A model generated the notes under the pieces. It did not search any database, was not told where the DNA came from, and worked only from the letters and a program-made list of their open reading frames with translations. The position numbers and the translations under genes were made by a program. DNA of 61,995 nucleotides, filler included, from Kipferlia bialata (lineage: Eukaryota), in assembly GCA_003568945.1 (NCBI GenBank). It is 5 parts of 5 records of this genome, joined end to end, with 100 filler letters (N's around TTAATTAATTAA, not from the genome) between each part and the next. Parts side by side here need not be neighbours in the genome. Positions count along the whole stretch, not along the records: positions 14,388 to 28,650 come from BDIP01000842.1; 4 more parts are not named here. One strand, 5' to 3'. Within the stretch, counting starts at the first letter, position 1, and each line of letters starts with the position of its first letter. Positions 8,083 through 53,190 of the stretch are shown here, one piece after another.

Positions 8083-8690
8083 CTACTCTGCCATGAACCT
8101 GTCCAGCACCTGGCTGAGGGTCTGTCTCCCCTTCTCGGCCTCTGCACCGGCCACCTCTGCTGCCACCCTCTCTCTCTCCCTGACCCCCAGGGGCACAGTA
8201 TCCAGCACCCACCTGCCACAGACAGAGGGGGTGAACTCGGGGTGGAACTGCACACCTAGCACTCTCTCATTCCCTATGGCCTCAATGATACGCTCTGGGT
8301 AGGTGCCCTCTGGCCAGAGAGGGTGGGTGCCTACCCGGCTGTAGTGGGCTGAGGGGCAGGAGGTGGCCAGGATCCGGAGGGGTGGCGACACGGCCTTTGT
8401 CTGGCAAGGGGGGGTATCAGGGCAGACCACACAGTCTGTGTGTGTCTCCACCACAGACACCCTGTGCATGTCCCCATCAGTGTCACAGAGAGACAGTGAC
8501 TCAACACCCAGCACACCAGAGGGGAGAGAGCACACCCGGTATCCAAGTGCCTTGCTCAATGCCTGGAACCCATAACAGATGCAGAGCAGTCGGAACCCGC
8601 TGTGTGCTCCCTCTGCCGTGGCTATCTGGCCCAGCCACTGCACAAGTCTCCCCGACCACGGCGCACAGCTTGTCACGCTGGCGAGGGCAC
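8083..8690 (-). CDS. Class I glutamine amidotransferase-like protein, last exon (5' part lost in N gap)
   Basis: Nucleophile elbow LCICYGFQAL and GVQFHPE (Cys-His-Glu triad); GALASV..PW motif right after an acceptor AG near 8691. Confidence 0.85.
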
Positions 8691-8805
8691 CTGAATCATC
8701 AATAATTACAGGGGATTAAAGAATATAAGATTATATATATATGAGATCATATACATAATAACGGGGGGGGGGGGGGGGGGGGGGGGGGTACAAAAAACAA
8801 ATCTG

Positions 8806-14287: not shown

Positions 14288-14387
14288 NNNNNNNNNNNNN
14301 NNNNNNNNNNNNNNNNNNNNNNNNNNNNNNNTTAATTAATTAANNNNNNNNNNNNNNNNNNNNNNNNNNNNNNNNNNNNNNNNNNNN
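14288..14387. other. Artificial scaffold linker
   Basis: N-run + TTAATTAATTAA (stops in six frames) + N-run. Confidence 0.97.
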
Positions 14388-14399
14388 CTGTTTCCTCCC

Positions 14400-14440
<41 letters not shown>

Positions 14441-14457
14441 TCTCAATCCAACCCCAG

Positions 14458-17400
14458 GACGAGGCCATTGCCTGGGTAGCTGAGTCAGAGTGGAGCCGCA
14501 TGGGTGACCTCTGTGAGGACCCGTGTCTCTTTGATGACTCAATCAGCCCAGAGGACATCAACCAGGTGTGTATGTATAATTATATATGTATATATACACT
14601 GTGATCAAAGGACATCAGCCGATGTGTATACAGATATATATATATATATATAGTGGTCAGTCAATACCTCCCTGGTAGTATGTCTGTCATGGCTCGTAAT
14701 CTCTCTCTCTCTCCCTCTCTCTGCCCCCCCCCCCACACACACACACCCAGGGCGGCATTGGTAACTGCTGGATGTGTGGCCAGGTGTCAGGGCTGGCCAC
14801 CCAGAACGGCAGACACGTCAGGTGGGGGGTATACATATATACTATTATATATAGTGTTTACCGGTATCGTCACTCACTCCAGGGGAGCCATCTACCCCCC
14901 TCACATCAACCCCTCTGGCATCTATGGGGTGAGGGTCTTCAGGAGAGGCAAGGTATGGGGAGTGTAGTGTATATATCCGAAGGAGATGAGAGAGTAGAGT
15001 CCCCCTTCATATCCCCCAGTGGTATCAGTCTGTGCATATGTATCACTTACCCCCAGGTACATGATCATTGGATATATTCATATGTCTATATATTTATATA
15101 TATACAGTGGTGTCAGTATCTATCTATGTATCTATTCTACCCCCAGTGGTACATGATCATTGTAGATGACCACATCCCCTGCCAGGGTCAGAGTGTCACA
15201 TCGGTCAAGTCCAAGAACAGGAATGAGTGGTGGGGGTACGCGGTATCTGTATATGGACATCCAAATAGCAATATGCACTTATCCCATTTTGTCTCTGATG
15301 TCCTCACCTATCCCATTGTCTATTCCCATTCATGTCTATGTATGTATCTCCTCTGACCCCATGTCCCTCCTGGAGAAGGCCCTGGCCAAGGTCTCTGGGT
15401 CCTACCAGGACCTCAGCGCTGGGATGGGTATCGGGTTGGAGCCGGTACAGGTGTTCACAGGTTAGGATAGTTGGGTAGGAGGCAGTGGTATACCCCATCT
15501 GTCCATTTACCATCTGTCTCTCACTGTCTAGGCTGTAACCTGTACATACACTGTTCCAACGATGCTGAGAACATATGGACATGGCTCAAGAGGTAGGGTA
15601 TATATGGAGTATGGGTATATATACTTATAGATATATATGGACATGACGCAAGGGGCAGGGCATGCTTAATGTATGGGTATATGCATTTATAGATAGCTAA
15701 ATATGCATGTGCGTATACATGTGACCCCAGGCTGTTCGATGCGGGTGTCATTGTGTCTGCTGGGACACAGGATGCCCAGACAGAGCAGACAGGCCTGGTG
15801 CAGGGACATGCCTACACAGTGCTGGGGGTGTACGAGAACACCGACCTCGACCTCAGGTGGGTGTTTCATACACATATCACATCTGCGCTCTTTGGACATT
15901 GACACCCCTCCCCTCACCCCCCAGGCTCGTGAAGATGAGGAACACTTGGGGGGCAGGAGGAGAGGTATGGGTATCTCATAGAGCGCCGAACACCCATTAT
16001 CCAGTCTCTACACCTATATATACTTATATGGACATACCTTCTCACCCCCAGTGGAAGGGTGACTTCAGTGACTCATGTCCCATGTGGCAGCAGTTCCCAC
16101 AGCTCGTAGAGGAGACAGGTGGGAGGGAGTAACTGTACTAGGACTTAGGTTGACCAGTCATCATAACCTATATAAATATATAGTTCCTACCCTAACCCAG
16201 GTGTCGAGCTGCACAGGGGTGACTCCGATGGCATATTCTACATGCCAGTAGAGGCATTCACCACACACTTCAAGGTGTGTATATACATGTGTGTCTGAGT
16301 GAGACAGAACTACTACTTGGTGTATGTGTGTATACATTTGATGAGTTACAAATACCAACCCCCCAGGGCTTCCGTGCCTTCCCGACCTGTGCGTGGCCCC
16401 CAGCTGGGGAGGACATACCCGCCTCCCTGACCAAGCCCATGCCCCAGGACTACTGCTACAGCAACGACTACAAGATACACACGGGCACAGAAGGTGGGGG
16501 TAAATGGGTATATTCTTCAAACACCATGGGAGTTAACCTGGTATATATTCGTGTGCATGTATACCCCCTCCCCTGTTCCCTACCCCTCAGGCTATGAGGT
16601 GACCACCTCCGTCGCTGTCCCCGTACCTGGTCCGAGACCTGGCCAGAAGACCACTGTGTACCACGCCTACAACCAGCCGCAGTACATGTTTGATGTCACA
16701 AAGGAGCAGGACATCAGAATCAGGGTGCAGGGTGAGAAGGGCAGCGAGGGGGGGTATCCCTCTCTCCACATTGTGCAGGTGCCAAATGATGGGTCGGCAC
16801 TCACATACAGGTACGTGTATATGTATATATAGTGTATCGCTTTGGTATGTCCTGACCCTCAGGGCCATGCGCCGTATGGATCTGGTTGATAGGGGCGAGA
16901 CTGACGGCTCCTCGAGTGTGCCCCACCACATCGGGTACTCCATGCTGACCAGCTGGATGGAGCGGCACCTGTCCATAGGCAGGTATGTCCTGGCACTGAG
17001 GCAGGGCAAGACAGACGGGTCGGCACTCACGTTGCAGGTATGTGCTGGGATGTTAATATACACGTTATATAGGTGATATACATATGTGACTACCCCCCCT
17101 TACCCCCAGTGCAAGGCCGCCACCTCGCTCTCCTTCGTCCCCCTCCCCTCTGGGTCCATGGCATGCTGTGCGGCACAGACTAAGGGAGGGGAAGTGGGGG
17201 GGTTCGCCAACCCCCAGTACTCCTTTGTAGTTGATGGGCAGGAGACGCAGAAGGTAAGTATTGGGAGACATCTTCGTATATAGTGGCTTCCCATTGTCAC
17301 GCTGACCCAGATCACAGTCGACCTCGAGTTCCCCTCTGCCGTGTATGGGGACGGGGGCGACTGCGGCTTCTACCTGGTCAAGAGACCCACCCACAAGAGA

Positions 17401-17601
17401 CTGGAGGACGCACCCGAGGGGGACGGGTTCTTTGAGGATGCCCAGGCGGACATGCCTGGGTATGTGAAGGGGGTGTGGGACCTCGAGCCTGGCATCTACG
17501 TCATAGTGCCCTGGAGGACGGAGGGGAAGGCGGAGTCCTACACGATCACAGTCGGGACATCAGCTGCTACTCTCAGCACCAAGGTGTACGGGCTGGGATA
17601 G
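14458..17601 (+). CDS. Calpain-family cysteine protease (CysPc + tandem calpain domain III-like regions), 5' truncated
   Basis: Spliced motifs DINQGGIGNCW, IVDDHIP, LLEKALAKVSGSY, GLVQGHAYTV, LVKMRNTWG, WKGDFSD; C-terminal NQPQY and GGFANPQY...LEPGIYVIVP; stop at 17599-17601. Confidence 0.93.
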
Positions 17602-17869
17602 AGTGATACCTGGGGACCGAGGGGATAGTCAGTGAGGGGCTCTGAATGGCTGTGTATGATATGAGTGAGTCGCGAGATTAGAAATGACTCCTTGTAGAGT
17701 AGAGCAAGAGTAACTGTATGATTATGTATTGGTGGCTAGAACTATTAACGGGTACAAGTAATTGATTCATGGAGAGTATGCAGTTCAGTCACAGGTTGCT
17801 GAAATGTCTCCATTGATCTATTCTGATTCTTATTCTGATTCTACACGACTTCACACACTATACCCCCTC

Positions 17870-19474
17870 TCACTCCCCCTCCACCCTGAATATGGCTGCC
17901 TTGACCGTCTGTATCATGGCCCCTGTGTTATGATACCGCACACTCTGGTGCTCAATGCCTGGTGTGGGGTGGGGTGGGGGTGATGGTGAGTGTGACACAG
18001 TACAATGGAGGAGACCAACGGTACTCTCATTCAACCACTATATATATACCCCTACCTGAGAACGCCACGTGTGTGTGTCCAAAGTACACGTCTGTTATGG
18101 CGCCAAAGTCACATGCCGCAGGGTGGGCCTCGGAGTGCAGGGAGAGGCGGGTCCCCATCCTCTTGGAGACCCTCCTGTTGGGCCAGATGACACGGACCTG
18201 GGGGTGGGGTATGCGGCACTTATGCGGCAATGGTGTACTTCTCTTCATAATAGAAGTCTATATATATACATAGAGAGACAGAGAGACTGAGTCCCGTACC
18301 GCTGGTAGCACTCTAACAGATACCAGTGCCTGGTAACCGAGGGAGGCTAGCCTACCCTTGACCTGATGGGTAGAGAGAGAGAGAGGGTGGGGAAGAGACA
18401 CTGTATGCTAACCCTGCCCACCTTGATGTCTGAGTCTGGCTTCAACTGGCGCTTGAAGGAGTGGGACCCCCTCTTCCTGCATGGTTAGAGGACTCACTCA
18501 CACCCATATAAATAGAGAGCCATCTGTGATTGACTGACACGCTAGTCCAACCCCCTCGGCATTCCCTACCTGCTGAGTGGCAGGTCCCCATGGACAAAGA
18601 GGGCTGTGCCTATAACCACATGGGTGCTATGCCAGTGGAAGTTGGGCACAGCGCCCTGGACAGTGAGGGGAGGAGAAAGCGGAGCGAAGAACGAAATGTA
18701 TCCTCATTCTTACTTATACTGAAGTGTGCATATGTGGGTGTGTTTGATACCCCCCACCTCGAGTGTGGCCAGCTTGGCTGCAAAGCCCTCCACTCCATCG
18801 TGGTTGCCCAGCACATAGTGGAACTGGGGTGGGTGGGGATACGGTACAATAGAGAGAACAGTCATTGCTACACATAATGACACTATACCATATCAAGCAT
18901 ACTGTCATGTCCATATGTACATTCATATAGTAAAAAACTCCTAATGTACCTGACAGTGTGCGTGTGCCTCACATAGCTCAGTCAGCCATGCAACTGCAGA
19001 CTCCATGGTGATCTGAGGGGTGAGAAATATACAATAGTAGAGAAGAGACATAGATAGCGTACACAGAGAATGACATAGGAAGGGGAGGGGAGAGAGAGAG
19101 AGTCACCACACCTCTAAGGATGCCTGGGCCCACTTGAAGTCGAATATGTCTCCGTTGAGGACAAAGAAGGCAGACCGGGCAGCATGTCTAGGTGAGAAAG
19201 AGAGAGGCATATACAGTATTGGAACATAGAGAGAGCAACACAGGAAGACAAGACCTTCTCTTGTCTCTAAGAACAATCCTGGTGTAGATGGGGAATACAC
19301 ATACATATACATTTACATATGCATGTATTCACTGGTCATGCACCTGTGTATGGCCCGGGTGTGCTCTGGGAGGGATGACCGCTGGGCAAACATGTGGATG
19401 TCAGAGATCACAGCCCCTCCCGTGGGAGCTTTCCGTTCGCCACCTTGATCCTCATCCTGCAGGGTCTCTTGCAT
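17870..19474 (-). CDS. Calcineurin-like metallophosphoesterase, LpxH/YbbF-like; about 9 exons
   Basis: All five motifs in order across exons: ISDIH, LNGDIFDF, YVLGNHD, FVHGD, VYFGHTH, then YHNTG. Confidence 0.88.
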
Positions 19475-19623
19475 ACCCTGACAGGAAGAAACAGTTGTCA
19501 AAATGATACTCAGCCCAACTAAAAACTTTCGGTCTGAGGCAACAAAAGGGTTGACACGTTATCACCGACCGAAAGAGCAAGCTCTCTATACCTCTTGTAC
19601 CACTTCCTGAGGGCCACACCGTC

Positions 19624-19981
19624 ATGCGTCACCTGTTACTGTTCTTCATCGCAGTATCTGCTCTGGCCCTATGTGTCCGGGGTGCCCCCTCCCCCCTCTC
19701 TGGGGGTGCTGTGTCCACTATGACCATGCAGGATAACCTGGGGGAGTACGTGACTGGGTCATCATGATTGTCTCCCCATCTTAGTACCCCCACTCCCTAC
19801 CCATTTCTCATCAAGGTCGAATTCTTGTCACACTTTCTTCTCCATTATCATTCAATAATAATTAGTTTCTTTCTCTCTCCTACCTTCTCTCGTTTATGCA
19901 GCCCACATACTCTTCTTGACATAAGGATCATTGATACTTAGGTCATAGAAACAGTACAAATGTATGCTGTCTCCCTTCTTA

Positions 19982-20063
<82 letters not shown>

Positions 20064-22033
20064 ATTTGCTTCAGTATGTTCCCTTTACCATGATTGAATG
20101 CATCCTTGCATTTCTCACCCTTCAGATGGGATACCCTATTGTGCTGCCCAAGGATGGGGGCGCCCTATGATTATATTACATTACATTGTATTATACTCAT
20201 ATACTGATTTCTTACATATTAACTATATATTATGGAATACATCCTTCCTTATCTCACCCCCAGATGGGATACCCTATTGTGCTGCCCAAGGATGGGGGCA
20301 CCCTATGATTCTATATTACAATGTATTATACTCATATACTGATTTCTTACATAATAATTATATATGATGGAATATACCCTTCCTTATCTCATCCTTCAGA
20401 TGGGATACCCTATAGTGATGCCTAAGGATGGGGGCACCCTCCGCATAGGGGCCTTGGTCAGTGTGATCGGGGGTAAGTATAGTACATACAGTGTACTTCA
20501 TTAATACCTTCGTATACGTGACAACTATCTCCTAGTTATATATATGAGATAGATAGATATATGTATGTGTCCTCCGGATAGGGGCAGTGGTCAGTGTGGT
20601 CGTGGGTATATATATTCTATATATACGATAATTGGCTTTCTATCTATATATCTGGTTAAGAAGTTATACCAGTTGTTGATTTATACACATCACTCCGTAT
20701 AGGGGCAGTGGTCAGTGTGGTAGGGGGGGGGGGGTTCTATATATGCATTAGAGTACTAAATACTATTAATAAATATTTAGTTGTGAGGGTATAACAGGTA
20801 TTGAATTATACACCTTGATCCGGAGAGGAGCCATAGTCAGTGTTGTCGTTGGTATGTAATTCATTAGTGCATAACACAGTTGTATATATATAGTTGCAAG
20901 AGGAGGTTGGGATGGAACGTATGGGCAATAGTCTTCTTTTTCTACATGAAATAGGTTTGATTCTTAAACAATAGTGAATTGTACATATTGCTCTAAGCAG
21001 TGTAGATCTATACTTATGCGTCACATCATTGTGCTACATATTCTATGCATCAGATAATGTCTCATGTGTGAGGCTACACTGGATACGATATGGGGGTATC
21101 AGTATCAGTATCCAATGTACGGTATATACTACTATGTATGCTATATATATACTATATACTACTATATATACTATATATATATACTATACATACATAATTT
21201 ATATATAAGTATATATATGTACTATATATATACTATAAATTGTAGTATCTCATGTATCAGGTTATACTGGATACGACATGGGAGAGCTGGTTGGGGCAGA
21301 CATGGCTCAACAGGGCTATGTATTGGTCAAGGTATCCTTATATATAGAATTATAACTACATATATATATATATATATATATACTGACTCTGTCTTGGTCA
21401 AGGTATCCTTCAACACACACATATATACATAGAAGTATGACTATATATTTTGTATATGGTATATATAGGTATGTATGTGTATATATAACATGTATATAGA
21501 ATATATTGACTACACCTCAGTGCTTCCTCTACAAACACAGTTCAATTTCGAGAAGACGCTCTCTCATCACAAGTGGGATACACATGAAATTTTATTAGTA
21601 TTGTTTCAAGACGATTGACTCTCATTCCTAGTGGGATCACAACGGTTCCACATCGGGTATGAATGCCACCGAGCTAGAGTATGTCTACCCTCTGACAGAG
21701 GAGACAGCCTGGATGGAGGAAGAGGAGAGAGGAAGACTAGAGAGAGAGAGGCAGAATCAGTTGGCCGCTGAGTGGAAGAACCAGGAGAAAGAGAGGAGGA
21801 GTGAGGAGGTTGCTAAGTGGGAGAGAGAGGAGAGAGAGAGACGGGCTAAGGGGGTTGCTGAGTGGGAGAGAGAGGAGAGAGAGAGACGGATTGATGAGAT
21901 TGCTCAATGGGAGAGAGCGGAGAGAGAGAGACGGGCTAAGGTGGTTGCTAAGTGGGAGAGAGAGGAGAGAGAGAGACGGGATAAGGTGGTTGCTGAGTGG
22001 GACAGAGAGGACCGGGATGGACACAAGCATTAG
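19624..22033 (+). CDS. Predicted secreted protein with C-terminal 14-aa Trp/Glu/Arg repeats
   Basis: Exon 1 MRHLLLFFIAVSALALCVRG (signal-peptide-like); internal exons MGYPIVMPKDGGTLRIGALVSVIG, GYTGYDMGELVGADMAQQGYVLVK; last exon with VAKWEREERERR repeats. Joins between exon 1 and 20400 unresolved. Confidence 0.6.
21790..22015 (+). repeat. Coding 42-nt tandem repeat (about 5 units)
   Basis: Units such as gttgctaagtgggagagagaggagagagagagacgg encoding (V/I)A(K/E/Q)WEREERERRxxx. Confidence 0.85.
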
Positions 22034-22989
22034 CATGTGAGACTCAAATGAGTGCTGTTTCATGTACTGTGCTGCGGTGAAAACGGTTGATTAGCCTGAG
22101 CCTACTAGAGAAGCATAGTGCATGTGTATGTAATAGAGCGGCCCTTAAAGGTAGGCTCGTCTTCGGAGTATTGTTGTGATTATAGAGATGACTATAGAAT
22201 AGTGATATTCATTAGTGTTTCCTCATTATTACAGGCTCAATGGTCGATCTCACGAATTCACTTCTCACGGACAACGTTGAATATCGTACGTTACTGTCGC
22301 CAGAGGTTCTATGTTGTATGTGGGTATGGAATATGCCTTACAGATGGTATCATAATGATGTGCCAGAAACTCAATATTGGGCTCCACTGTGGACTCCATG
22401 AGGAGACTTGTCATACTGGCGCGGACGCGTCACCCCTAGTCTGGACAGAATAGTCATACAATACACTATAGTGCGGCGTCTGCGAAGGGAGCGCTCTCAG
22501 TGCCCCGATCTCTGGTCCTACTTCCTGAGTGAGATACTCTGATACCCACCCTCTCCCTTCTGTCTATGTCCCAATGTAGAAGGCGCCCCCACCCCATCTC
22601 CCCATTGGGGTAGAGCAAGGCGTCGTTGATTTTTTGATTTATATTTTGTGTTATTTTGTGGAGAGAGAGCAGGTGTAGTATCTCCTATCCTCTTGGCGTC
22701 TTTCTCTCTCTCTGTGTGTGTCTCAGGCTGAGACTCTTTTCAGTGTGTGTTGTGGGGAGAGACGGCGCTTAAACCCCAGCATGGATCTGTAATCGATTGT
22801 CGCAGACTGGTTCCAAGGTCTCTCCAGGGGCATACACCAAGCAATTGAGGAATATTATTATGTATTAGTATATACTATATTGTTCGATATTCAGCGTTTG
22901 AGTTGAACTGACATGATGGTGACACACTATTACAAGAGACATACCTCCACGGCGTCTCAGAGACTTTTGCCAAATCCCCACTGATGGTG

Positions 22990-23660
22990 TCATAGATCCA
23001 AACACACCCAGTGGTAAAGACAACTAGAATCCGACCAAATCCCTGTTGTTTGCTTGCAGTTATTCATATTGTCAAGAGAGTATTCTAGTTGATAATCATT
23101 TGGTCGGATATCAACTAAACCATATAATGTGCGTTGCTGTGGTTCTCTTAAGTTCAGAGTCTTAACAATACCTGTATATATCCCTGTCACTTGACCCAAC
23201 TGTGGGGGAGGTGTCGGTTTCTCCAGCCAACCCTGATCAGGGGTGTATGTGTGGTGCTTGGACGCCATGCAGAATGCATGCATGACTCCATACACGACCG
23301 CGCACACAGAGATGTGCGGTGCTTGTCGAGGGTCGAGGTTGAGGGTGCCCTTATCGATGTCGTGGAGGTAGTTTGCACCTCCATTGAACCCAAAGTGATG
23401 ACCCACAAGACTGTCCGAAAGCACACATGATACTCCATAGTCAGATAGATATCTACGCGACATCCCACATACGTACTCGTGGATACTGTCACCCATAGAG
23501 TGTGTAAACTGAGCCGTTGAAGGCTCATACATTAACACAAAGCGTTCTTCAGTAGCAATGTCGAACTCATGCAGACATAGAACCTGGTCTCTTCTCTCAG
23601 TGCTAAAAGCCAACACCTTCCCCCCCACATTGACAAGAGAGAGCCTTCCACTCAGACCGA
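22990..23660 (-). pseudogene. Degenerate beta-propeller/Kelch-like ORF, possibly a pseudogene
   Basis: 212-aa ORF without ATG start; SLVNVGGKVLAF and CAVVYGVMHAF...HHTYTPDQGW resemble Kelch-like blades; no clean upstream exon. Confidence 0.3.
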
Positions 23661-24317
23661 TGTCTTTATGTTCATTTGTTCTATTTCATTCTATTTTATT
23701 CTATTCTACTCTATTATCTTTATCTTTATCTCTATCTTTACCAGACTGCACACAGAATGTGATACAACTGCGCCATGGCTGTTCAGACATAGTGGGAAGT
23801 AGTACGAGGTTTCAGGGTGGTCTCTGTTGCACATGCCGTTACACACCAGCAGGCATGACTGTGAACCAGTGGTAACCATTTGAACAGGAAATACCTTACC
23901 GAGACCTTGGCAAGGTATGCTGACGTCCTGCACAGTAATGGCATCAATCAGGTGTGTGTGTGCCTCATCGTAGGAGTAAACGCTATCCCTGTCTCCATTG
24001 TTTGAAACAACTTTCGCCAAAACGCCAATTAATCTAGTGTAGTATCATATATACTATTAGACATATTATATATGATAAATACCAGTGTCTCAAACTGGTA
24101 TCTCAAGTGAGGGACTTTGTGGTGCCAAGGTGCAGACAGACACATCTCTATACTCTAACCAATCTATTCTGTTCCCATCTCTTTAGACTCCAGATTAGAC
24201 AGGTATCTCCAATGTAGGGAACAGGATTGTCCTTGTTGGCCCAAGGGTGCAGACAGACAGACAGAAGTATGATACTTCTATTACTCTTCTTCATCATCTA
24301 TTCTCTGTTAACTCCCT

Positions 24318-24504
24318 TCAGACCGGAATCTCCAACGTGGGAAAGAGGATTGTCTTTGTAGTCCCAAGGGGTGCAGAGAGACTCCTGGTGCTACGCTTCA
24401 TTCTGAAAGGGGTGTAGAGAGAGACCAGCCACTCGCCCTGGCCAGAGACTAGGGAGGAGCCTAAGTGTAAGGGAAAGAATGTATCTATCTATCTATACAT
24501 ATAA

Positions 24505-24541
<37 letters not shown>

Positions 24542-27500
24542 CCAGCCACTCGCCCTGGCCAGAGACTAGGGAGGAACCTAAGTGTCAGATAACAATATTT
24601 CTTATTATAAGTCTTATAATAAGAGGAACCTGCATGTGAGGCTATTAATGCATATATACAGGAGAGAGAGAAAGATGGAGAGAGAGAAAGATACTGGTAC
24701 CTGGGGATGGGGGCCTTGATATGAGTATCTTGTCGATGTACGGGGCCAGCTCTCTGTCTGAGCGCAGTTCCTGGGGGATAAGAGGTCGAACTAGATGAAG
24801 TACAATGAATAGAATACCGTAGCATTGAATCTAATTACGTGATAATACTATGCACAAATACGTGTGCAATGAACACCCTGATACCTGCAGTGCATGTTCC
24901 ACGTTGTGTCCAGCGGCAAGACGTGCAGTAAGGAGTCTGAGGGTAAGATGAGAAGACATATATATAGATGGGAATTGAGAAGATATTGAACATAATATGT
25001 ACAAGACGGCAGAAGTGTGAGGTTGAAAGGGAAAGAGAGTGTCTTGTATTGATATTGGCCTTATCCACCCATATCAACCAATATTGTCTTATCCATACCT
25101 CACAACCAGGTGCCTCTCGTCTATTGGGCATGTGATGGACCGGCCCTTGGACATCTTGAGGGCCCTGGCAGGTTAGATATATATATACTTTTTTGCATGT
25201 ACCCTATATGTACTAATATATGCAGTTATACTATATGTCAGATGGACCGGCCCTTCGACATGTTCAAGGCCAAGGAGGAACATTATATAAATATAGAATA
25301 CATATAACTAATATAACTACATATAACTAATATAACTACCTGCTCAATAGTGTTGCCGCCGAGCTGTAGTGCCCATCTCTGTATGCAGCCATGCCCCCAG
25401 CCACGTTGGACACAGACTCTAATCTATGGTAAGAGAGGGTAACGTATATATATATATATATATATATATGCATATGTACATATAGTAGATATATAGTTAG
25501 CCATGCCCCCAGCCACGTTGGACACAGACTCCAGCCTAAAGGGTAAGCGTATTGAAGAATACCTTCAACATTGATTCCTTTAGAGTGAATATACACGTAT
25601 ATCTATATATACCTGGTTACGTCCTTGAATGGCACCCTAGCCCCCTTGAGAGTGTTGCACACCCTGACCATGCCATGACAGAGGGAGTCATAACTACCTG
25701 AAGATTAATATGTATATACATATTTGTGTGTAAATGCAATATGTAGAAAACATACGTAGAGAGGTGTATGAATGTAGACCATGGCCATGAGTAATATGGA
25801 ATCACAGCTGCTTCAAGAATAGTGTGTATATGAAATAGTATATATTCTTCTTTATATACGTATACATATCTGTACAACGTTAGTGTATTACGAGGTTCAA
25901 TACCTTGCTTCTCCTTGACAAATGTGTCCAGCCCACCCATCCCGTTGAAGATGGCTGTGCAGTGCAGGTCGACCAGGGAGGCAGCACGATCTGGGAGGTT
26001 GCCTAATGGTCAGGAATGTATGTGTACATACATTGCGGACTATTTAGGACTATGTATTTTTGTAGAAAAAATGGCTGTGCAGTACATGTCAACCAGAGAC
26101 GCAGCTCTGTCGGGGAGATTCCCTGACAGCAAATATCCGTTACATGTGAGAGTAATGGTAGACAAAACATCCTTGTATATATCATTCACCTTGGGCACTC
26201 ATATATATATATATATATATCACCCACCTAGCAGTAGCTCCAGGCACTTGGACTGCACTGCATCGGAGTCCTGGGGTTAGAGGGTCAATGATACAACGAT
26301 TATTCACAAAACTTTCAGTAGTATATATAGACAGATATGTAAATATATAAATATATACATAAATATACTTGGACTGCACAGCATCGGAGTCCTGGGGGTG
26401 AGTGGGTTCAGACGAAGTAGAAAGGATGCGAATACTGTTTCAATGTAAAATACTACATTACATTATCATAATATTGACTCTTTGACTATTGGTCCGTTGT
26501 CTCAAGGGGGTATATAGGGAATCCTAATATCATGAATGTCCTCATTCACCCTTGCAGCACTGTCTGCTTCCATGTCTGTATAATCAATCTCTCTCTCTCT
26601 CTCAATAAATATATGCTAACCTTAATATCATGAATGCCCTCGTTTGTCCTTGCAGCACTGTCTGCTGCCATGTCTGTATAATAATCTCTCTCTCTCTAAA
26701 CATATATAATTTCTCATTCATACCTTAATGTCGTGAATGCCCTCATTTACTCTAGCAGCACTGTCCGCTGCCATGTCTGTATAATCTCTCTCTCTCTATA
26801 TATATATACAAATATATATATATCTGTGTGTGTGTGTGTGTGTGTGCTAACCTTAATGTCGTGTATCCCCTCGTTTGTCCTTGTCGCACTGTCTGCTGCC
26901 ATGTCTTTTATATAATATTCTCTCTCTCTCTCTCTATATATATAGTATTAATATATATACATATATACCTTAATGTCGTGGATCCCTTCATTCTCTCTGG
27001 TAGCACTGTCTGCCGACATGTCTGTATAATAATCTCTCTCTCTCTCTCTCTCTAAATATATATTAATATATGTGTGTGTGTGTGCGCTAACCTTAATGTC
27101 GTGTATCCCCTCATTGACCCTTGCAGCACTGTCCGCTGCCATGTCTGTATAATAATCTCTATCTCTCCCTCTCTCTATATATATACCTTAATATCATGTA
27201 TCCCCTCGTTTGTCCTTGCCGCACTGTCTGCTGCCATGTCTGTGTAGTGGGACAGAGATGGTAGTCTAGCCACCATCAGAATGTCGTCAATGTCCTAGGG
27301 TTAATGATAATATAACTACAAATGATATATGGATCAATACCTGTCTCTCCGTGATTGTGTGTCTGCTACACACACCCATGGTGGCAGTCTCTCTCTCTCT
27401 CTCTCTCTCTAGGTATATATATATCTGTGTATATATATATACATACCTGTCTCTCCGTGATTGTGTGTCTACTGCACACTCCCATTGTGGCAGCTCTGAT

Positions 27501-27982
27501 ATCCGGGTAGGGAGGGGGGATGGAGCCCAGACGGTCAAACCTAAGAGTGAGGGTACAGCAACACCTACAATACATCTTCATATATACTGTACTAACACAT
27601 AATAATGTATATACATACCTGGCCAGAGGGTACCGCGTCTGGAGGGATGCCAGGATGGATAGACCGATCCTGGGGGTAAGAGACTAAGTCTGAGATGGTT
27701 CCAGAAGACTCGAGAAAATAGAAAGATCCAATATACTATCTAAAGTAATACAAACAATTGGACGATGTCAGGATGGATATGCCGATCCTGGGTGTGAAAT
27801 CATAATGTATCCAACATATATAGTGTACCTCCGCAGGTGGATATATATATATATATGTGTGTATATGTATAAATACCTAGGCATGTTGAGGTGTGTGCAC
27901 ATCTCAGAGGCAGCGAGACCGGCCATCAGACCAGCCGTGATGTTCCTATAGTTAGAATAGGATATATATATATATATATATA

Positions 27983-28031
<49 letters not shown>

Positions 28032-28563
28032 AGCCAGACCGGCCATCAGACCAGCCGTGATGTTCCTGGAATGAGACCATTGAGGCATACAAACAATAAT
28101 ACCCTAGAGAGGATAATGCGAAAGCTCCCATCGGACTAGTATAGATATTACCTCTTGTCCCTAATGTTTGTCCTGTGCGTATCTGCCGCATTCATAGTCA
28201 GTTGCACAGTCAGCAGTGCCAGCATGGTCTCCCCTGAGACAAGGAGGGCCTCAACGGCAGAGGGGATGTCCTGACGTTACATATATATATAGAGAGAGAG
28301 GGAGTGCCAGCATGGTCTCCCCTGACACTAGCAGGGCCTCGACTGCAGATGGAATATGCTGACGTTATATATATATATATACGCGTGTATATATATATAT
28401 ATATAGAGGGAGTGCCAGCATGGTCTCCCCTGAGACAAGGAGGGCCTCAACGGCTGAGGGGATGTCCTATTGTAAATAAGTAACATTGAATAATGTGGAA
28501 TGATATATGACATGCTATGGGATATTCAGACACTAGCAGGGCCTCAACGGCTGATGGTGTATC
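24318..28563 (-). CDS. WDR17-like protein, C-terminal helical region (5' truncated by scaffold end)
   Basis: About 11 exons join in frame: SAVEALLVSGETMLAL...DIDDILMVARLPSLSHY...CLELLLGNLPDRAASL...GGMAAYRDGHYSSAATLL...ITCPIDERHL...SAPLGTTKTILFPTLEIPV*. Resembles my recollection of the WDR17 C-terminus; no search run. Confidence 0.55.
26523..27239 (-). repeat. Array of seven ~53-nt copies of an exon 3' half (one intact exon, six intronic echoes)
   Basis: Copies at about 27187-27239, 27092-27144, 26969-27021, 26852-26904, 26724-26776, 26621-26673 and 26523-26575, separated by (TA)n/(GA)n/(CA)n tracts. Confidence 0.92.
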
Positions 28564-28650
28564 CTAGAAAGTGAGAAAGAATGGTATAAAGACAGAGAAA
28601 TAGGAGGCGGGGGGGGGGGGGGGGGGGGGGGGGAAAAGGGGGGGCCAAAC

Positions 28651-28750
28651 NNNNNNNNNNNNNNNNNNNNNNNNNNNNNNNNNNNNNNNNNNNNTTAATT
28701 AATTAANNNNNNNNNNNNNNNNNNNNNNNNNNNNNNNNNNNNNNNNNNNN
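28651..28750. other. Artificial scaffold linker
   Basis: N-run + TTAATTAATTAA + N-run. Confidence 0.97.
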
Positions 28751-29529: not shown

Positions 29530-31197
29530 TCACATCCCGATCTTGAGTGTGTGGACCTGCCCTGAGAAGGGGTCCAGCAGACTGACACACCCCGTGCCCT
29601 TGTAGGATGGCACAATCACACACGTCATCTCATGGTCCCCCACCATCACCGTCTGCCTCTCTCCCACTGTCACCTTGGGGTCCCCAGAGGGTGCCACCAG
29701 CAGGGAGGGCAGCACAGGCTCATCGTCAGCCCCCTTGCACAGGCAGAGGTTGTCTGCTGGGGCAGGGAACATGTCCAGGGTGTCTGGGGCAGTGGGGGCC
29801 AGGTGGCAGAAGGAGGCGAGGCGGCACAGGGCCTGCATGGGGGTGAGGGGGGTCTGGCCAGCAATGTCAGCCACCACCTCCTCCCCTATGAAGGTGACCC
29901 TGGAGGACAGGGAGAGAGGGGCACAGGCCACCTCGGCAGTGCAGGGGTTGGTGCCCAGGTGCATGTTGCCAAACCTAGACGCAGAGGGAAGGAGCACCCT
30001 GGAGTTAGAGGTAGTAGAGAAGGACACACTGCAATAGGAACACTATACATATACAAATCACACATATATACTACCTGTTGATGGCAGGCTGTGGGAGGCC
30101 CCTGGGGACTGGGTCCTCTGTGGAGGGCAGGGCCAGCACAGGGAGGTTGCCAGTCAGGTTGGCCAGGAGACTGTCCAGGGCCTCCACAGGGGCCACAAGG
30201 CCTGAGGTGGGTGACACGGAAAGGTATAGGGAAGTCATAGCATATACATATCCAGATTACCTGCGAATGTGACTGCCCTGCTGACATCTGCCTCAGAGAG
30301 GGCCTGGCGACCTGTCTCAGACCTGGGGGTCAGATTGGTATCGCTATACGAATACCCATATCAACTAAACATAGAGCGTGGATGACTCACTCTTCGGGTG
30401 GGGCCAGCATACCGCCCATCAGCACTGTGGCCTGTACCCGTGACAGCAGAGGCCGCAGGGCTGGGGTGAGACATATATAGAGGGAGTAGTGGTGTGTGTT
30501 CCTAGATAGAAATAGCTAAATGGTTAATCTTGGTCCCCTCACCCTCTGGGCATGGTGCCACCCCCGTGACTATGTTGCTGAGCATGGTGAGGGGGGGAGG
30601 CAGGGCAGAGGCCAGGCTGATGTGGTTGAGGCACAGCAGCAGTGGGGAGGGGGCGGTCCCGTCCTCGACAGGGAGTGAGAGAGAGGGGGGTGCCGGGGTG
30701 GCAGAGGGGGTAGGCAGGGGTCTGGGGTAGAGCGTGTCCTGGACCAGGAAGGCAGAGTCACTCGTGACACGGCCCCTCAGTGCCACCACCACCCCACACG
30801 GCATCTCGTGCAGATCCACACCCTCCTCCCCCTCCTCTGTCTCCATCTTCACCTCCTGTGCCTCCCCCTCCTCATGGCTGTGCAGTACAATGATGGACTG
30901 GGGGTCACACAGAGTCACCACATCGCTCGTCTGGTAGTACTTCCCCTGGCGTTGGCGTGATATATGGGTATCAGTGAGAGGCTATGACACCAAGGGCGTA
31001 CCTCAAGCAACCTAGGCAGCTCAAAAGCATCTAGGGAAGCGTATGTGTCTATCACCGTCTTCTTCAGACTGAATTGCTTGGCTACCACTCCAATCAGAAC
31101 CTGGTATTAGCTGATGGCAACGAAACCCGGTGGTGACTCAGAGGTTGCAAATATGATTACGTGGCTCTTCAAAGAGTATTGCAAGGGAAATGCATAT
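29530..31197 (-). CDS. POLD2: DNA polymerase delta small (B) subunit, 5' end in gap
   Basis: VLIGVVAK, CGVVVALRG (OB fold), LPSTEDPVPRGLPQPAI, TNP, HLAPTAPDTL, VIVPSYKGTG. Confidence 0.85.
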
Positions 31198-38772: not shown

Positions 38773-38872
38773 NNNNNNNNNNNNNNNNNNNNNNNNNNNN
38801 NNNNNNNNNNNNNNNNTTAATTAATTAANNNNNNNNNNNNNNNNNNNNNNNNNNNNNNNNNNNNNNNNNNNN
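38773..38872. other. Artificial scaffold linker
   Basis: N-run + TTAATTAATTAA + N-run. Confidence 0.97.
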
Positions 38873-39432: not shown

Positions 39433-41588
39433 ATGCTTGATGTTCAGGGAACCATTGCAACCGCGAATGCAGCACTTCAGGATTTAGTGATGGAGTCAAG
39501 GTACGTGAATGTGGGGATCACCTACAATTGTATCAAGTAGAATATTCCAGTCATATCTTTTAATTACAAGCCGCGCACCATGTGGAGAGCACCATAGGTA
39601 TTATGGACGTGTATATCGTGGATACCGAGAGACTTCACATGATCTGGTAGCTGCGATATGGGGAGGTGCATGCGTTCCTCTTCGGGGGTTGATTGGTCTT
39701 CCCCCCCAGCCAGAGCCCATGCCCACCATAGAGGCGGAGGGTGTGTCACCATTCCAGCGCCTCTTTGCAGATGCCGAGGCTGATATGTCGAAGCGGCAAG
39801 GAGATTCCCCCCAGGAAGATCGTGTCCAGCACCCTGAGGCCAGGAGGAGACACGTACTCACTGCGCTTGATGAGATATGGATACCCTCCCTTGAGGATAA
39901 GCCCCACGCCCTCGTACCACTGCCACCAGGCCTTTGTATTAGGGAAAAGGGCCAAGTACAAGAGTCAAGAGACGACGAGCCATCATTTTGCCAAACCCCG
40001 CATCCGTATGAGGCCGAGGTTCGTGCTGCATTCCCCAGTGACACATCTCTGAATTGCTTACGTAACCTGTCTACAGTCAATGAGGAGGTTACAATTGCGG
40101 CAAGAGAGGCCAGGCAGGGGGTTAACCGCGAGGGAAGTGGTGGTTACATATCGCGAATGGATGCTGTATCTCTTCACAGTGGAAAGGGCATGGAAGTGAA
40201 CGTAGGGGAACTGAAGGGGGTAAAGTATCTCCCAGAAGGCCACGCTCCAGCGGTGTATGGGCTAAGTGTGCTTGATCAGCCAACCGCTGTTAGTAGGCAC
40301 AGCAGTCTCATGAGGTCGGTCCTCAGCACTCCCCTCGTGCGAATCCGTGATAGAGTGGGGTTGGAGATGTTGGTGTCGCATCTGTCTGGGCAGAGTGTCA
40401 TGGCCATGGACCTGGAGCATGCCAGACATTCGTTCCACGGGGCCACCTGCTTGATGCAGATATCGACTCCTTCTGCAGACTTCATTGTTGACACTCTTGC
40501 TGTCTGGTCACACATGCACCTCCTCAGATCTGTATTGGCAAACCCAACAGTGACCAAGGTGGATAGATCTGGCCACTACTGTATATGTGAAAGGGTTTTC
40601 ATCTTCTCTCATCTTATGTTAGGTTGTACACGGTGCGGACATGGATGTGCAGTGGTTACAGCGGGATTGGGGGCTCTATCTTGTGAATGCACTGGATACG
40701 GGTCGGTGCGCCCAGGCCCTAGGGCTGCCCCGTGGACTTGCCCGGCTGACCCATGCACTGCTTGGGGTGTCTCTTGGTAAGGGGCAGCAACTCTCTGACT
40801 GGTCCTTGCGCCCCCTCTCTGCCTCACAAGTCTTATATGCACGTATTGACACACACTGGCTCTTGCTTATGTGTGGAATCTTGTTGGACAGGCTAGGTAG
40901 TCCGGCACTAGCTGTAGAGTGTAGCCGTCCCGTGTGCCTGGGTGTGTACCACCCGCCATCTCAGCTGTCTCTGCTCCAAGGAAGGGCCAGTGTACTCGCT
41001 GCCGATCCAGATTTTGGTGGGATAATACGGCGTCTACTCTTGTGGAGATTCTCAGAGGGTTTCCGACTGAATATTCCTCCTGAAAGTGTCGTGTCCGAGG
41101 CGTGTCTTGTGTTGGTCGCCCAACAACGACCATCTAGTGTTGCTGCTGTTGCCTCCTACCTCGGAAGCACGTCTTTAGCACCTGACGTTTACGAAGCACT
41201 CTGGTCGGTAGATAGGGCTTCAGACGGCAATGTGATGTTGTCAGATTGTATGGAAGTGGAGAGGGTGTCAACCGGTCCCAATGAGGGTCTTTTTCCTCCT
41301 CCTGTACATGTTGAGGTGGGTGTTGTATGCCCACCTCGTTTTGGGAATGATCTTGGCTCCTCAAGGTTTTCTCTATTATATGAGAGCGCGCTGTGTGGTG
41401 GTTGTCCCAAGCCCGTTCAGACACAGAATACTAACAATACTTCTCAGACAGTTCCTCAGAAGAGGCGTAGTGAGGGTGACGGACCTGTGAGTAGTGTTGG
41501 GCAGGTGAAGGGAGCATATGTGGCGACACCAGGTGCCAAGAGGGTAAGAGAGAGACCTCAGACCCTTACCACGCCTGCTGGGTGGTAA
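39433..41588 (+). CDS. RRP6: Exosome-associated 3'-5' exonuclease RRP6/EXOSC10
   Basis: HPYEAEV, AMDLEH..SFHGATCLMQIST, DFIVDTL, VHGADMDVQWLQRDWGLYLVN..DT, QLSDWSLRPL, YARIDTH, HRDC-like tail; introns near 39501-39570 and 40559-40623. Confidence 0.93.
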
Positions 41589-42892: not shown

Positions 42893-43010
42893 TTGCGTAT
42901 TTAGGTAGTGTCTGGCCACCAATAGTGTTATGACTAGCCATATTTGAGTTTTGATATTTTGGTCTTGTTTCCAAAAATAGTAGACTTACACATCAGCTAT
43001 ATTCGCCACG

Positions 43011-46000
43011 TTGCTGGTTCTGGCATCTGCTACGACCCCAACATACGAGCTTCGGAAGAAGGAAACTGATCAGGCTGATGTGGTTGGTGTCAGCAACACC
43101 CTGTGGAATCTTGTGGACACCTCAACCGATGAGGATGTTGTTGTGATCCCTGCAGGTATTGTTGGGCACGATTCAGACTACGAGGTCCGCGCCGTTGGCA
43201 GCCTTGGTGACTACAGTATTCGCCTCAATGTTGAGGCAGGTAACGTGATGCCTGAGGAGGGAGAGGCCTTAACAACCGGTTACATCCCCAACCTGGTCTA
43301 TCCTGACGAGAGCATGGGACACAAGATCACGTTCCTTCTTGACGATGACACTGAAGTTACCGTTGGTGTGTGGACTGTGTTTGACATTGACGTGACCAAG
43401 TCTGAGATTTCCTTTGATGGGGAGAACATTCTGGATGGGACATCCCCTGTACTCTCCCTCGTCTCCGGAAGCATCTACACCCTGAAGGTTGCTCTCAACA
43501 ACCACAATGGCGACAACTTGCTTCCCATTCCCCTCATGACCACCTGGGGCCTGTCATCCCTCGTTGAGTCATTCATCTCTATGTTGTCTGGATCCGACGA
43601 GAGCGCTGCCGAGATCACCCTTCCCGATATGGACGCTGTCCTTGAGGCCATTCAGGCCAAGATTGATGAGAGCGGAGCCACTTACGGTGTCAACAATCCC
43701 TCCTACGACTTCTGTTCCCTGGTTGATGGGGCCTACGTTTGCTCCGAGGACACCTCTGCCCTCGAGGACGTCATGGACGACTTCGACTATGACTTCCCCT
43801 TCACAATGGAGATTGGCATGGAGACTGACGACGACGGCAATTCCTCGGGTGGCTTGAAGCTCCCCCAGATCGAGTTTGAGGGCGCCCTCGCCGTGTCTTT
43901 CGAGGTCCAGCTCATGGGAGACATGGAGGGCTACTTCAAGGGAAGCTTTGAGTACTTTGACTACACAACCTTGTCCTGGAAGGATACTGAGGGAGACGCC
44001 AACCTTGTTGCTCTCGAGGGCCTTTGGATCGAGGACATTGCCGACGAGGTGCCATCCATGACCGGTGCCATGCTCGATCTCTGTGACGACGACATGTGCG
44101 TGACCGTCACCTTTGACAAGGACATATCCGTGCCTTCCTCCGGCGATGACTCTTCCTCATTTGGCTGTGATGATGTGTTTGCCTCCAGTGATGGGTTCTC
44201 GATCCCAGGGTGGACGTGCTCTGTGTTGGACTCCAACAAGCTCGTAGCTACCATTCCTGAGGTGTTCCTTACCCCTACCCTGCTGGACGGCGGTGTCGTC
44301 AGCTTGAAGGAGGATGCTGTTGTGGGTAGCTACGCTATGGTTGACCGCTCCGACAGTGCCTCTGGGACTATCGAGGTGAACACTGCTGCCGTTCCCACCA
44401 CTGAATCAGTTACCCTGCAGTTTGCAACCGGCTTCACCACCGCCCCCGGAGTAACAGTGACAGAGTGGAGTATCCCGACCACCATGTGTGGGGCAGTGGC
44501 TGCCGAGTTTGGACTCTCCAACATGAACGGAGTGTCTCCTCTCTCTGTGGAGATTGTTGCCATCAAGACCGGTGATGCCGATAGTGATGGTACCGTCATT
44601 GGCTCTTCTGTGTCTGGCACATCTGTTGTGGCATCTTTTTGGGAGGGCTCCTTTGATCCTCGCACCATCGACAACACCTACTCTCTCAAGGTTAGGGTCG
44701 AGACTGTGATGGGCGTTGGTTACTCCGCCGCTGGTACCGTTGAGTGGGACTCCTCAGACCTCGCTGGTCTGTCTTACGCCAAGAGCATCTCCCGAGGCAA
44801 GACCCAGTCTGCCAAGTCCTTTGCCCTTCCCAACGTCAGCAGCCTCTTTGTGTGCCAGAGCACCAAGGTTGTTGGGTTCTCTTCCGATGATGACCTACCT
44901 TTGGGATTCAGCCTCACTGGAGAGGATCTCTTCCTCACCGTTAACCCAACCCGTGCTGCAGCCGGTGATCACGTGGTCGTGCTCACAGCCACCATTGTGC
45001 CCGATGTCGTAGACCCTGTCGACGACCTCCCCTCATACGAGGTGGACTTCACCTACAACGTGACCATCGTTGATACTGAGAGTGACGGCGTGTCATTCCT
45101 AGGAGAGATTGATGGCAATGACACTGATGGGTATCTGCCCTCTGACGGCATGGTGTTCACCCTCAACAACCTGAGCCCCGCTGACGCCGCTGTCAAGTGG
45201 GAGGTGAAGAATGGCAGTGAGACCATCAAGACTCAGGACTCTGCCGACGCCACGGATGCCGCTGGGGCCACTTTCGACAAGGCTCTGCTCAAGTGGACCT
45301 ACGATGAGCTGGTGCTGACCTCTCTGACCGACATCTCCGTCACCGCCACGCTCACTGACGCAACAGACTCTACCGAGACTCAGGTCATTGAGTACGACAC
45401 CGATGGGATGGTTGTCATGGCCGTCACTCTCTCTGACTTTACCGCTGAACTTGTGGACGCCTCCATCACCTCCGATGAGTCCTTTGATGTCAAGATGGAC
45501 TTCTCCATCGCTGCCGGTGAGGAGGACTTCTTCTTCGGCGACGCCTCCTCTGCCCTCGAGACTGTCTGGTTTGTGGACATGGCATTCGGCGATGTCGTTG
45601 TGACGTCCGAGGCCCTCTCCCCCTTTGACCTCCTGGTTGAAGGCGACTACGTGTACTCTATGGACGTCCCTATGTGTGGCGCCGACGAGGTGACCGCTGA
45701 GGTTTCCCTTCTTGTCCTCACTGGTGGTGTGGTTGTTTACGATACGGAGGCTGCTGCCGCTGCCTCATTCGCCTTCACCATCCCCTGCCCCACTGTGGAC
45801 ACCGATGACCTCGAGGATGTGTCACTTGAGACCCTTGCCCTTGTGGTCAGGGCTGATTCCGTCAGTGCTGAGGATACAGCCAGCGTACTTGACGCTGGTG
45901 TTGACCTCATGGCTGATGCTCAGGCAGGAGGCACTCTCGACCGTGCAACTGTGTCTGCCTTTTCAGGCATGATTGCTGAGGGAGACGCCGAGTCTCTCCC

Positions 46001-46874
46001 CGACACTGAGGCTATGGAGTCCTTCACTGACATTGTCTCCACCATGTACGACGACATCGACGAGGACGTCCAGGTGTCTGTCGAGGAGGCCGAATCGGTG
46101 CTTCTTGCCGTCACTCAGGCCGCTAGCGAGGGTCTGGTTTCTGCAGAGAAGGCCCAGGTTGCTGTCCTCTCTGTGGCCAAGGCCTTCCTCCAGTCCCGGG
46201 CCTGTGACCCCGATGTTGATATGTCCACTGAGTCGGGAAGCTTCACCACAAAGGCCTCCTTCGTCACCCCTAGCAACTCTGAGATGGAGATTGGAGGTGT
46301 CACCGTCACTCTCCCCGCCTCCTTCTTCGAGGACCTTGAGCTCGGGTGCGTGCCTGCAGTTGGGGACTCCACCGTCCCTGAGTCTGATAGCTCGTCCATC
46401 GCTCTGGCCAAGGACACCAGTGACGCCAGCGATGTCATTGCTATTACCAGCCAGGGCGGCATGTCTGTGGCCTCTAACACCATCAGTGCCCTCTCCACTC
46501 TCAAGGACGCAGTGACGGTGGCTCTTCCCTTTATCGATGGAGCATCCACCTCTGAGTCAGAGACCGACACCACTCGCACATCTATCAAGTGCATGACCCA
46601 GAACTCTTCAACTCTGCTGTGGTCCGCCTCCGGGTGTACTACTGTGGTCGGTACCGATGGTGTAGAGTGTTCCTGTGACAGCCTCGGTCGTTACGGTGCC
46701 TTTATGGTGACATCTGTTATCCAGCTGGTGCCTTCCCTTCCTCTGTTGGGTTTCACTGGTTATGCAGTGCTGGTTGCTGTTGTTGTGTTTGCTCTGGTTG
46801 GCATGTGTTGCTCATACTCTTGTATTAAGAAGGCCCACACCAGGGTGAACAAGAAGCCAGCTGGAAAGGTTTGA
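43011..46874 (+). CDS. Large acidic type I membrane protein with GAIN/GPS motif and one TM helix (N-terminus probably in gap)
   Basis: 1287-aa uninterrupted ORF; KCMTQNSSTLLWSASGCTTVVGTDGVECSCDSLGRYGAF, then hydrophobic YAVLVAVVVFALVGMCC and a short basic tail. Confidence 0.8.
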   Translation: MLVLASATTPTYELRKKETDQADVVGVSNTLWNLVDTSTDEDVVVIPAGIVGHDSDYEVRAVGSLGDYSIRLNVEAGNVMPEEGEALTTGYIPNLVYPDESMGHKITFLLDDDTEVTVGVWTVFDIDVTKSEISFDGENILDGTSPVLSLVSGSIYTLKVALNNHNGDNLLPIPLMTTWGLSSLVESFISMLSGSDESAAEITLPDMDAVLEAIQAKIDESGATYGVNNPSYDFCSLVDGAYVCSEDTSALEDVMDDFDYDFPFTMEIGMETDDDGNSSGGLKLPQIEFEGALAVSFEVQLMGDMEGYFKGSFEYFDYTTLSWKDTEGDANLVALEGLWIEDIADEVPSMTGAMLDLCDDDMCVTVTFDKDISVPSSGDDSSSFGCDDVFASSDGFSIPGWTCSVLDSNKLVATIPEVFLTPTLLDGGVVSLKEDAVVGSYAMVDRSDSASGTIEVNTAAVPTTESVTLQFATGFTTAPGVTVTEWSIPTTMCGAVAAEFGLSNMNGVSPLSVEIVAIKTGDADSDGTVIGSSVSGTSVVASFWEGSFDPRTIDNTYSLKVRVETVMGVGYSAAGTVEWDSSDLAGLSYAKSISRGKTQSAKSFALPNVSSLFVCQSTKVVGFSSDDDLPLGFSLTGEDLFLTVNPTRAAAGDHVVVLTATIVPDVVDPVDDLPSYEVDFTYNVTIVDTESDGVSFLGEIDGNDTDGYLPSDGMVFTLNNLSPADAAVKWEVKNGSETIKTQDSADATDAAGATFDKALLKWTYDELVLTSLTDISVTATLTDATDSTETQVIEYDTDGMVVMAVTLSDFTAELVDASITSDESFDVKMDFSIAAGEEDFFFGDASSALETVWFVDMAFGDVVVTSEALSPFDLLVEGDYVYSMDVPMCGADEVTAEVSLLVLTGGVVVYDTEAAAAASFAFTIPCPTVDTDDLEDVSLETLALVVRADSVSAEDTASVLDAGVDLMADAQAGGTLDRATVSAFSGMIAEGDAESLPDTEAMESFTDIVSTMYDDIDEDVQVSVEEAESVLLAVTQAASEGLVSAEKAQVAVLSVAKAFLQSRACDPDVDMSTESGSFTTKASFVTPSNSEMEIGGVTVTLPASFFEDLELGCVPAVGDSTVPESDSSSIALAKDTSDASDVIAITSQGGMSVASNTISALSTLKDAVTVALPFIDGASTSESETDTTRTSIKCMTQNSSTLLWSASGCTTVVGTDGVECSCDSLGRYGAFMVTSVIQLVPSLPLLGFTGYAVLVAVVVFALVGMCCSYSCIKKAHTRVNKKPAGKV

Positions 46875-53090: not shown

Positions 53091-53190
53091 NNNNNNNNNN
53101 NNNNNNNNNNNNNNNNNNNNNNNNNNNNNNNNNNTTAATTAATTAANNNNNNNNNNNNNNNNNNNNNNNNNNNNNNNNNNNNNNNNNNNN
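53091..53190. other. Artificial scaffold linker
   Basis: N-run + TTAATTAATTAA + N-run. Confidence 0.97.

Follow-up and report, generated by a model that had tools for sequence, protein, structure and literature searches.

How can a fragment of coding sequence that is skipped by the spliced message come to differ from its source mainly at silent sites? The question is raised by a partial copy of exon 7, hereafter an echo, that lies in an intron of KIPB_004087, a gene of Kipferlia bialata identified by protein search. Divergence biased toward silent sites is usually taken as proof of translation, and here it is found on fragments that the mRNA contig skips. We considered this echo within the window, by which we mean the whole stretch of 61,995 nt of K. 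bialata DNA that was analysed. Paired N-runs around a 12-base linker at 14288-14387, 28651-28750, 38773-38872 and 53091-53190 divide the window into five pieces, and pieces abutting across these linkers are not genuine neighbours.

The part of KIPB_004087 that falls in the window is described by a 13-exon model, with AG at all acceptors and GT at 12 of 12 donors, which contains the KIPB_004087 protein exactly. The gene extends past the end of its 14,263-nt piece (14388-28650): its first exon in the window begins at about position 3095 of the RNA contig described below, about 3.1 kb of further mRNA lies outside the window, and the full protein would probably have about 1,390 residues. No Pfam family was matched by the protein and no relative was recovered among 1.84 billion representatives, its own cluster having one member. 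In a paralog search of the annotated proteins the sole match was the gene's own protein and none of 222 shorter candidates scored; these negatives pertain to annotated proteins, and the comparison with the contigs described below would miss a diverged copy less than 85% alike that lacks the echo sequence. A single-sequence structure model is mainly helical with a mean pLDDT of 40.8; Foldseek searches with it gave no match with an E of 0.001 or below, only weak rows that are TPR-like, and the Atlas also offered weak TPR-type look-alikes, a resemblance that may serve as a weak lead only.

The focal echo repeats the 5' end of exon 7 and differs from it at 13 of 56 nucleotides. The coordinates, sequences and translations given for both in the first-pass annotation are correct, and our recount agrees with its tally of 10 synonymous against 2 replacement codons: nine whole codons are synonymous (CGT/AGA among them), the tenth such change is in the Gly codon split by the intron, and the replacements are L>M and H>Y. 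The last echo codon (TTC/TTT) stands at the entry to a T-run and may match by chance, in which case the count becomes 9 synonymous and 2 replacement. As had also been noted, the echo stops mid-exon with no donor at its end; its acceptor AG is kept, and its frame runs into a stop in the spacer, the last 30 nt of which are unlike the echo's own flank. Its differences from exon 7, of which it is the only echo, run along the whole length, and this argues against a recent conversion of exon 7 by the echo. Under a null matched for the number of differences, with free mutation in the dead copy and silent-only change in the live exon, about 6 replacement codons are expected against the 2 seen (P 0.002-0.007, or 0.007-0.015 with strongly AT-biased mutation). 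Taken alone this P value is marginal, the echo having been picked as the best of 18, and it is therefore the pooled test, given below, that carries weight.

Two runs from one sample cover the locus, both as contigs rather than raw reads. The second run, which we guess to be RNA, contains a 4227-nt contig (record 9) with GT-AG joints, the pieces of which match the positions of the 13-exon model base for base; between its pieces for exons 5 and 7 the gap fits only the 43-nt exon 6. This contig uses each exon's own AG and GT, and the echoes sit in existing introns or beyond the stop. RNA depth is 0 in the bins that cover the focal echo and in those covering most of the exon-5 array, and no alternative echo copies occur in mRNA, both as judged from the contigs of one run, from which rare forms drop out. 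The earlier view of the focal echo as apparently non-coding is consistent with its absence from this one spliced contig, and the echo is no lone case but one of 18 in the gene.

These 18 ungapped echoes are found at 10 of the 13 exons and are nearly always intronic (Table 1). Ten are acceptor-side, seven donor-side, and one repeats the end bearing the stop codon; all are direct repeats near their source, on diagonals of 88-664 nt. Silently changed codons total 76 and replacement codons 19 over all of them, or 49 and 19 when each variant is counted once, with individual echoes differing from their exons by anything from 1 in 56 to 15 in 60 nucleotides, and the three echoes of exon 1 alternate between two codon types. 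No premature stop is present in any of the 18, and the splice dinucleotide (AG or GT) is kept in 15 of 17; use of the echo's own splice site would give an in-frame, stop-free insertion in only 1 of 17. A nineteenth copy at 24090-24135 (-), in which the gene's final codons and stop are repeated but part of the interior is deleted, does not enter any of these counts. Among other candidate interpretations, echo sites as alternative splice sites were ruled out by frame and stops, and recursive splicing or a lost intron at the echo end was rejected as an echo seldom begins with GT or has GT next after it. Echo frequency was measured within the window, where a translated self-scan with 36 hits added no convincing echo to those of the known arrays.

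Table 1. Features of KIPB_004087 and its echoes, in window coordinates.
Feature	Position	Strand	Basis
KIPB_004087 3' part: 13 exons, 362 codons + stop	24318..28270	(-)	protein match, RNA contig, exon model
Three acceptor-side exon 1 echoes	28303-28358, 28411-28466, 28529-28563 (span 28303..28563)	(-)	sequence
Acceptor-side exon 2 echo	28030..28065	(-)	sequence
Acceptor-side exon 3 echo	27764..27787	(-)	sequence
Donor-side exon 4 echo, 4 synonymous, 0 replacement	27341..27387	(-)	sequence
Six donor-side exon 5 echoes, apparently mosaic mutually, within one 916-nt intron	26523..27151	(-)	sequence, RNA contig
Acceptor-side exon 6 echo	26367..26391	(-)	sequence
Exon 6, 43 nt, spliced directly to exon 7	26228..26270	(-)	RNA contig positions leave no room for echo
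Focal echo: first 56 nt of exon 7 copied, AG in front, no donor	26067..26122	(-)	sequence; RNA depth 0 in bin 26072-26212
Spacer, 64 nt, ends in used acceptor, carries in-frame stop	26003..26066	(-)	sequence
Exon 7, 99 nt, AG/GT, used in mRNA	25904..26002	(-)	RNA contig, exon model, match to P0001
Acceptor-side exon 9 echo	25499..25535	(-)	sequence
Acceptor-side exon 10 echo, AG lost	25241..25271	(-)	sequence
Acceptor-side exon 13 echo	24533..24577	(-)	sequence
Echo of exon 13 coding end, downstream of gene, stop changed to different stop	24195..24247	(-)	sequence

The pooled test used the 11 nearest copies of the 18, one per exon side, which differ from their exons by 41 synonymous and 9 replacement codons. 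With constraint on the live exon alone, about 30-32 replacements would be expected, and 0 of 4000 simulations reached 9; with the focal echo removed the remaining ten copies show 32 silent and 7 replacement codons against 24-26 replacements expected, again with 0 of 4000. The null was run with three different transition ratios and with two AT biases, and a one-sided null is rejected for KIPB_004087 with or without the focal echo. By codon position the differences in the 11 nearest copies number 10/155, 3/157 and 44/157, a third-position divergence of 0.28, and the observed pN/pS of the echoes is about 0.13-0.18. When echoes are compared with one another, the minimum changes stand at 14:7 silent to replacement for exon 5 and 9:2 for exon 1 (under neutrality, P is at most about 0.001). 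AT-biased decay was rejected as a candidate, third-position changes not being one-directional (33, 25, 27), and a crowding of differences toward the splice end (45, 41, 32 and 24 by quarter), which is confounded by end trimming, was left unused. The first-pass annotation had seen in the focal echo a long coding constraint on a fragment. The null tests uphold constraint at the protein level on the echo's lineage through most of its divergence from the exon; this constraint does not require that the fragment be translated in place.

The surroundings of the echoes present a different picture from their coding parts. In 16 of the 18, the 30-nt flank matches the exon flank at or below the 95th percentile of unrelated introns, and flanks are unrelated even beside copies with a single coding difference in 25-56 nt; introns here diverge rapidly through slippage, so that flank scores overstate age. 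Near-identical coding parts beside unrelated flanks point to copying from working alleles. Among the seven versions of the exon-5 end (the exon and its six echoes), the four-gamete test fails for 17 of 36 site pairs, a failure that can arise from saturation too; adjacent sites share partitions (P 0.007-0.02), and an adjacent-incompatibility test of mosaicism gave no significant result (P 0.16-0.44).

Based on these features we propose, with a confidence slightly above even, that the echoes are tandem duplications that splicing hides and that working alleles, in a population of high diversity, have renewed through gene conversion or recombination. The silent bias of the focal echo is accordingly likely to have come from working alleles on other chromosomes rather than from translation in place. 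The units seen suggest an origin in tandem duplications of about 90-140 bp that straddle a single splice site, frequently terminate at a microsatellite and were plausibly produced by break repair with microhomology. Splicing, in the one mRNA contig seen, picks the innermost AG and GT round each exon, and as a result the extra half-exon remains intronic and leaves the protein as it was; only duplications with this outcome would survive. The coding part may then remain alignable while the introns scramble, with gene conversion or unequal crossover repeatedly overwriting the echo with exon sequence and allelic recombination uncoupling echo from exon. Each echo would act as one more allele of the population, and its differences from the exon would mirror allelic polymorphism, which is mostly silent; for this, silent diversity near 0.25-0.3 and frequent haplotype exchange would be needed. 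Copies that leave the exchange would decay, and the outermost exon-5 copy, with its donor lost and 4 replacements, appears to be decaying.

On one chromosome only one of the two copies is translated at a time, and hence about half of the divergence is expected to be neutral. This agrees with a toy two-locus simulation at N=250, in which each of 18 settings was run once. With conversion confined to one chromosome, pN/pS came to 0.51-0.81 in 6 of 6 settings, and with weak haplotype exchange (Nc 2.5) to 0.34-0.59 in 4 of 4, while haplotype exchange with Nc of at least 10 gave 0.03-0.27 in all 8 settings, with pS near the allelic diversity. The third-position divergence of 0.28 was matched only with diversity near 0.25. 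Within the toy model, then, the observed pattern is obtained only with exchange between haplotypes. Several considerations count against refreshment from alleles: the diversity it requires is extreme, and the focal echo, with silent changes in 10 of its 19 codons, lies toward the upper end of the range; conversion usually requires a few hundred similar nucleotides (PMC3924837), whereas the echo tracts, at 24-60 nt and up to 25% diverged, fall short of the usual conversion lengths; and the echoes of the neighbouring gene fit the ordinary null, while the proposal does not account for the enrichment in KIPB_004087.

The alternatives can be weighed against the same body of evidence. An assembly chimera of two haplotypes or strains might be suspected from the fragmentation of the draft assembly, in which the gene runs off the scaffold end, but an independently assembled 1283-nt contig of the DNA run (record 3) crosses echo, spacer and exon over 25502-26775 with 0 differences and 0 gaps, although that run, also held as contigs and with some records filtered out, may be the window's own source. 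The junction is thus spanned, in place of the unsupported joint and complete echo elsewhere that would have told against the first-pass reading. Depth over the two bins covering the echo and the 5' part of exon 7 is 425.6, precisely that of this single contig, which indicates that no other record of at least 85% likeness lies on the echo; neighbouring DNA contigs have similar depths (389-436, apart from a single contig at 289), the DNA contigs over the locus list no variant letters, and we deem a chimera very improbable. We likewise see little chance that the echoes are ordinary dead tandem copies, whether in the form of a protected live exon beside a neutral echo or of exon silent sites changing far faster than the echo. 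Such decay fits the neighbouring gene's echoes, but for KIPB_004087 it is rejected at all three transition ratios and both AT biases, conversion on the same chromosome gives it no rescue in simulation, and its fast-exon form demands that the exon change about 8-16 times faster than the echo, though the intron touching the echo is already unalignable.

Use of the echoes in place, either as DNA donor cassettes or by alternative or non-canonical splicing that is rare or confined to certain stages, would put them under direct selection, and would agree with the retention of AG or GT and the lack of premature stops as well as with the divergent spliceosome of K. bialata, for which 87 spliceosomal proteins and no snRNA candidates are described in PMC6679479. 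We nonetheless hold it to be quite improbable: the spliced RNA contig skips the echoes and RNA is absent over the focal one and most of the exon-5 array in the contigs of the one run, the single in-frame and stop-free case among 17 excludes the focal echo, which hits a stop, and exon 7 shows no recent conversion by its only echo. An unlikely, if somewhat better placed, proposal is that each echo was captured once from a diverged and since-lost working copy, be it a member of a gene family, a homoeolog, or a sister species or hybrid partner. Capture of this kind would account, with no continuing conversion, for the bias toward silent change, for flanks that are unrelated and for the retained splice dinucleotides, and the two alternating codon types among the exon-1 echoes suit it too. 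Yet the full-length paralog of the echo for which the first-pass annotation recommended a search is missing from the annotated proteins, in which the gene's cluster has no second member, and from the DNA contigs on the echo at 85% likeness or more; the range of divergence and the six exon-5 copies, all distinct and apparently mosaic, would call for many donors; and near-identical coding parts beside unrelated flanks are a poor fit.

Beyond KIPB_004087 the scan of the window picked up arrays at 20.1-21.4 kb and at 54.2-54.7 kb and, in weak form, near 15 kb, and nowhere else. KIPB_004086 (20090-21410, +), the first two exons of which are at 20400-20472 and 21261-21331, has seven echoes, among whose variants 11 are silent and 10 are replacements, for the most part conservative; the ordinary null is not rejected for these (P 0.14-0.32), a result that counts against the generality of the silent bias. 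At its first exon an acceptor-side and a donor-side echo end at one point, as a single break site would give. In another gene on a different scaffold, four near-identical donor-side echoes occupy 54224-54707 (+), with flanks alignable in the three scored, and this array likely represents the young stage, or birth, of the echo process. Short, more decayed echoes surround exons at 14590-15660 (+), on the same scaffold as KIPB_004087, in a gene that we take to be calpain-like. Between the two echo-rich genes, the stretch at 21500-24100 has few evident introns and a 231-aa open frame (22990-23685, -) with no Pfam match, and is possibly a mobile element remnant. Elsewhere in the window Pfam matches comprise a glutamine amidotransferase (8083-8715, -), a 3'-5' exonuclease with an HRDC domain (39509-41588, +) and, weakly, a DNA polymerase delta subunit OB-fold (29530-30981, -); long open frames of 1296, 412 and 1059 aa at 42984-46874 (+) and 57132-61550 (+) look like surface proteins, the latter two frames carrying repeats of about 100-110 residues.

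Published work supplies some context for refreshment from working alleles. The K. bialata genome paper reports 124,912 introns, and duplication, heterozygosity and ploidy go unmentioned in its main text (PMC5874029). Metamonads lack Ku70/80 and Ku-dependent end joining, fornicates have two Dmc1 with Rad51A absent, and metamonads keep key meiotic genes, sex not having been directly observed (PMC8516963). Synonymous diversity in Paramecium is among the highest in eukaryotes (PMC11334263); for Kipferlia and its close relatives our literature search returned no figures on diversity. If refreshment from alleles is true, the echoes in one genome would report allelic diversity and haplotype exchange, and with them indirect evidence of genetic exchange in a lineage in which sex is unobserved (PMC8516963). 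More tentatively, and at appreciably less than even confidence, the introns of KIPB_004087 could be a self-refreshing archive of population alleles, with half-exons captured and renewed from other haplotypes and able to feed silent and conservative variants back to the exons. Were that so, a single genome would contain a sample of many alleles, and would document silent diversity near 0.3 and recombination, sexual or parasexual, in this free-living metamonad. KIPB_004087 also offers 15 natural decoy splice sites with which to ask how a divergent, intron-rich spliceosome chooses the innermost pair.

A full-text literature search, with most subscription papers beyond its coverage, returned no description of such an echo pattern, and we therefore set it beside the systems that it most resembles. 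Tandem mutually exclusive exons of the Dscam type are adjacent exon copies with silent-biased divergence; in contrast, each echo has one splice site, none is in the mRNA contig, and only 1 of 17 is in frame and free of stops. Silent donor cassettes are known from the chicken immunoglobulin pseudo-V genes, trypanosome VSG and Borrelia vls, and the echoes share with them the character of non-expressed partial copies that keep frame near an expressed site, but their variation is silent or conservative rather than diversifying, and exon 7 has no long tract matching its echo. The immunoglobulin case is mentioned alongside interlocus conversion and concerted evolution between gene and pseudogene, which predicts polymorphism shared between copies (PMC3924837); common to it and the echoes would be mosaic copies and a likely exchange of a silent copy with a working one. 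Here, however, the unit is a half-exon of 24-60 nt that recurs at most of one gene's exons, and the echoes keep their silent divergence rather than becoming homogenised. Intron gain by tandem genomic duplication was reportedly described by Gao and Lynch in 2009. This form of internal tandem duplication (PMC3443670) shares with the echoes a short intragenic duplication, an extra copy that is spliced out and an unchanged protein, and both a direct repeat near its source and, in the one spliced RNA contig, removal of the extra copy from mRNA are found here. It differs in that the echoes neither create an intron nor reuse an AGGT: each duplicate spans a splice site that was already there, and lengthens an intron already present or the 3' flank. 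The neutral decay of a dead copy (pN/pS of about 0.5 or more against the live exon) is not seen, with 9 replacements against about 30 expected, and the two-sided silent bias is not predicted in the passages on intron gain consulted (PMC3443670). The echo pattern is a dense, unusual feature built from known processes, the cause of its silent bias being what we infer.
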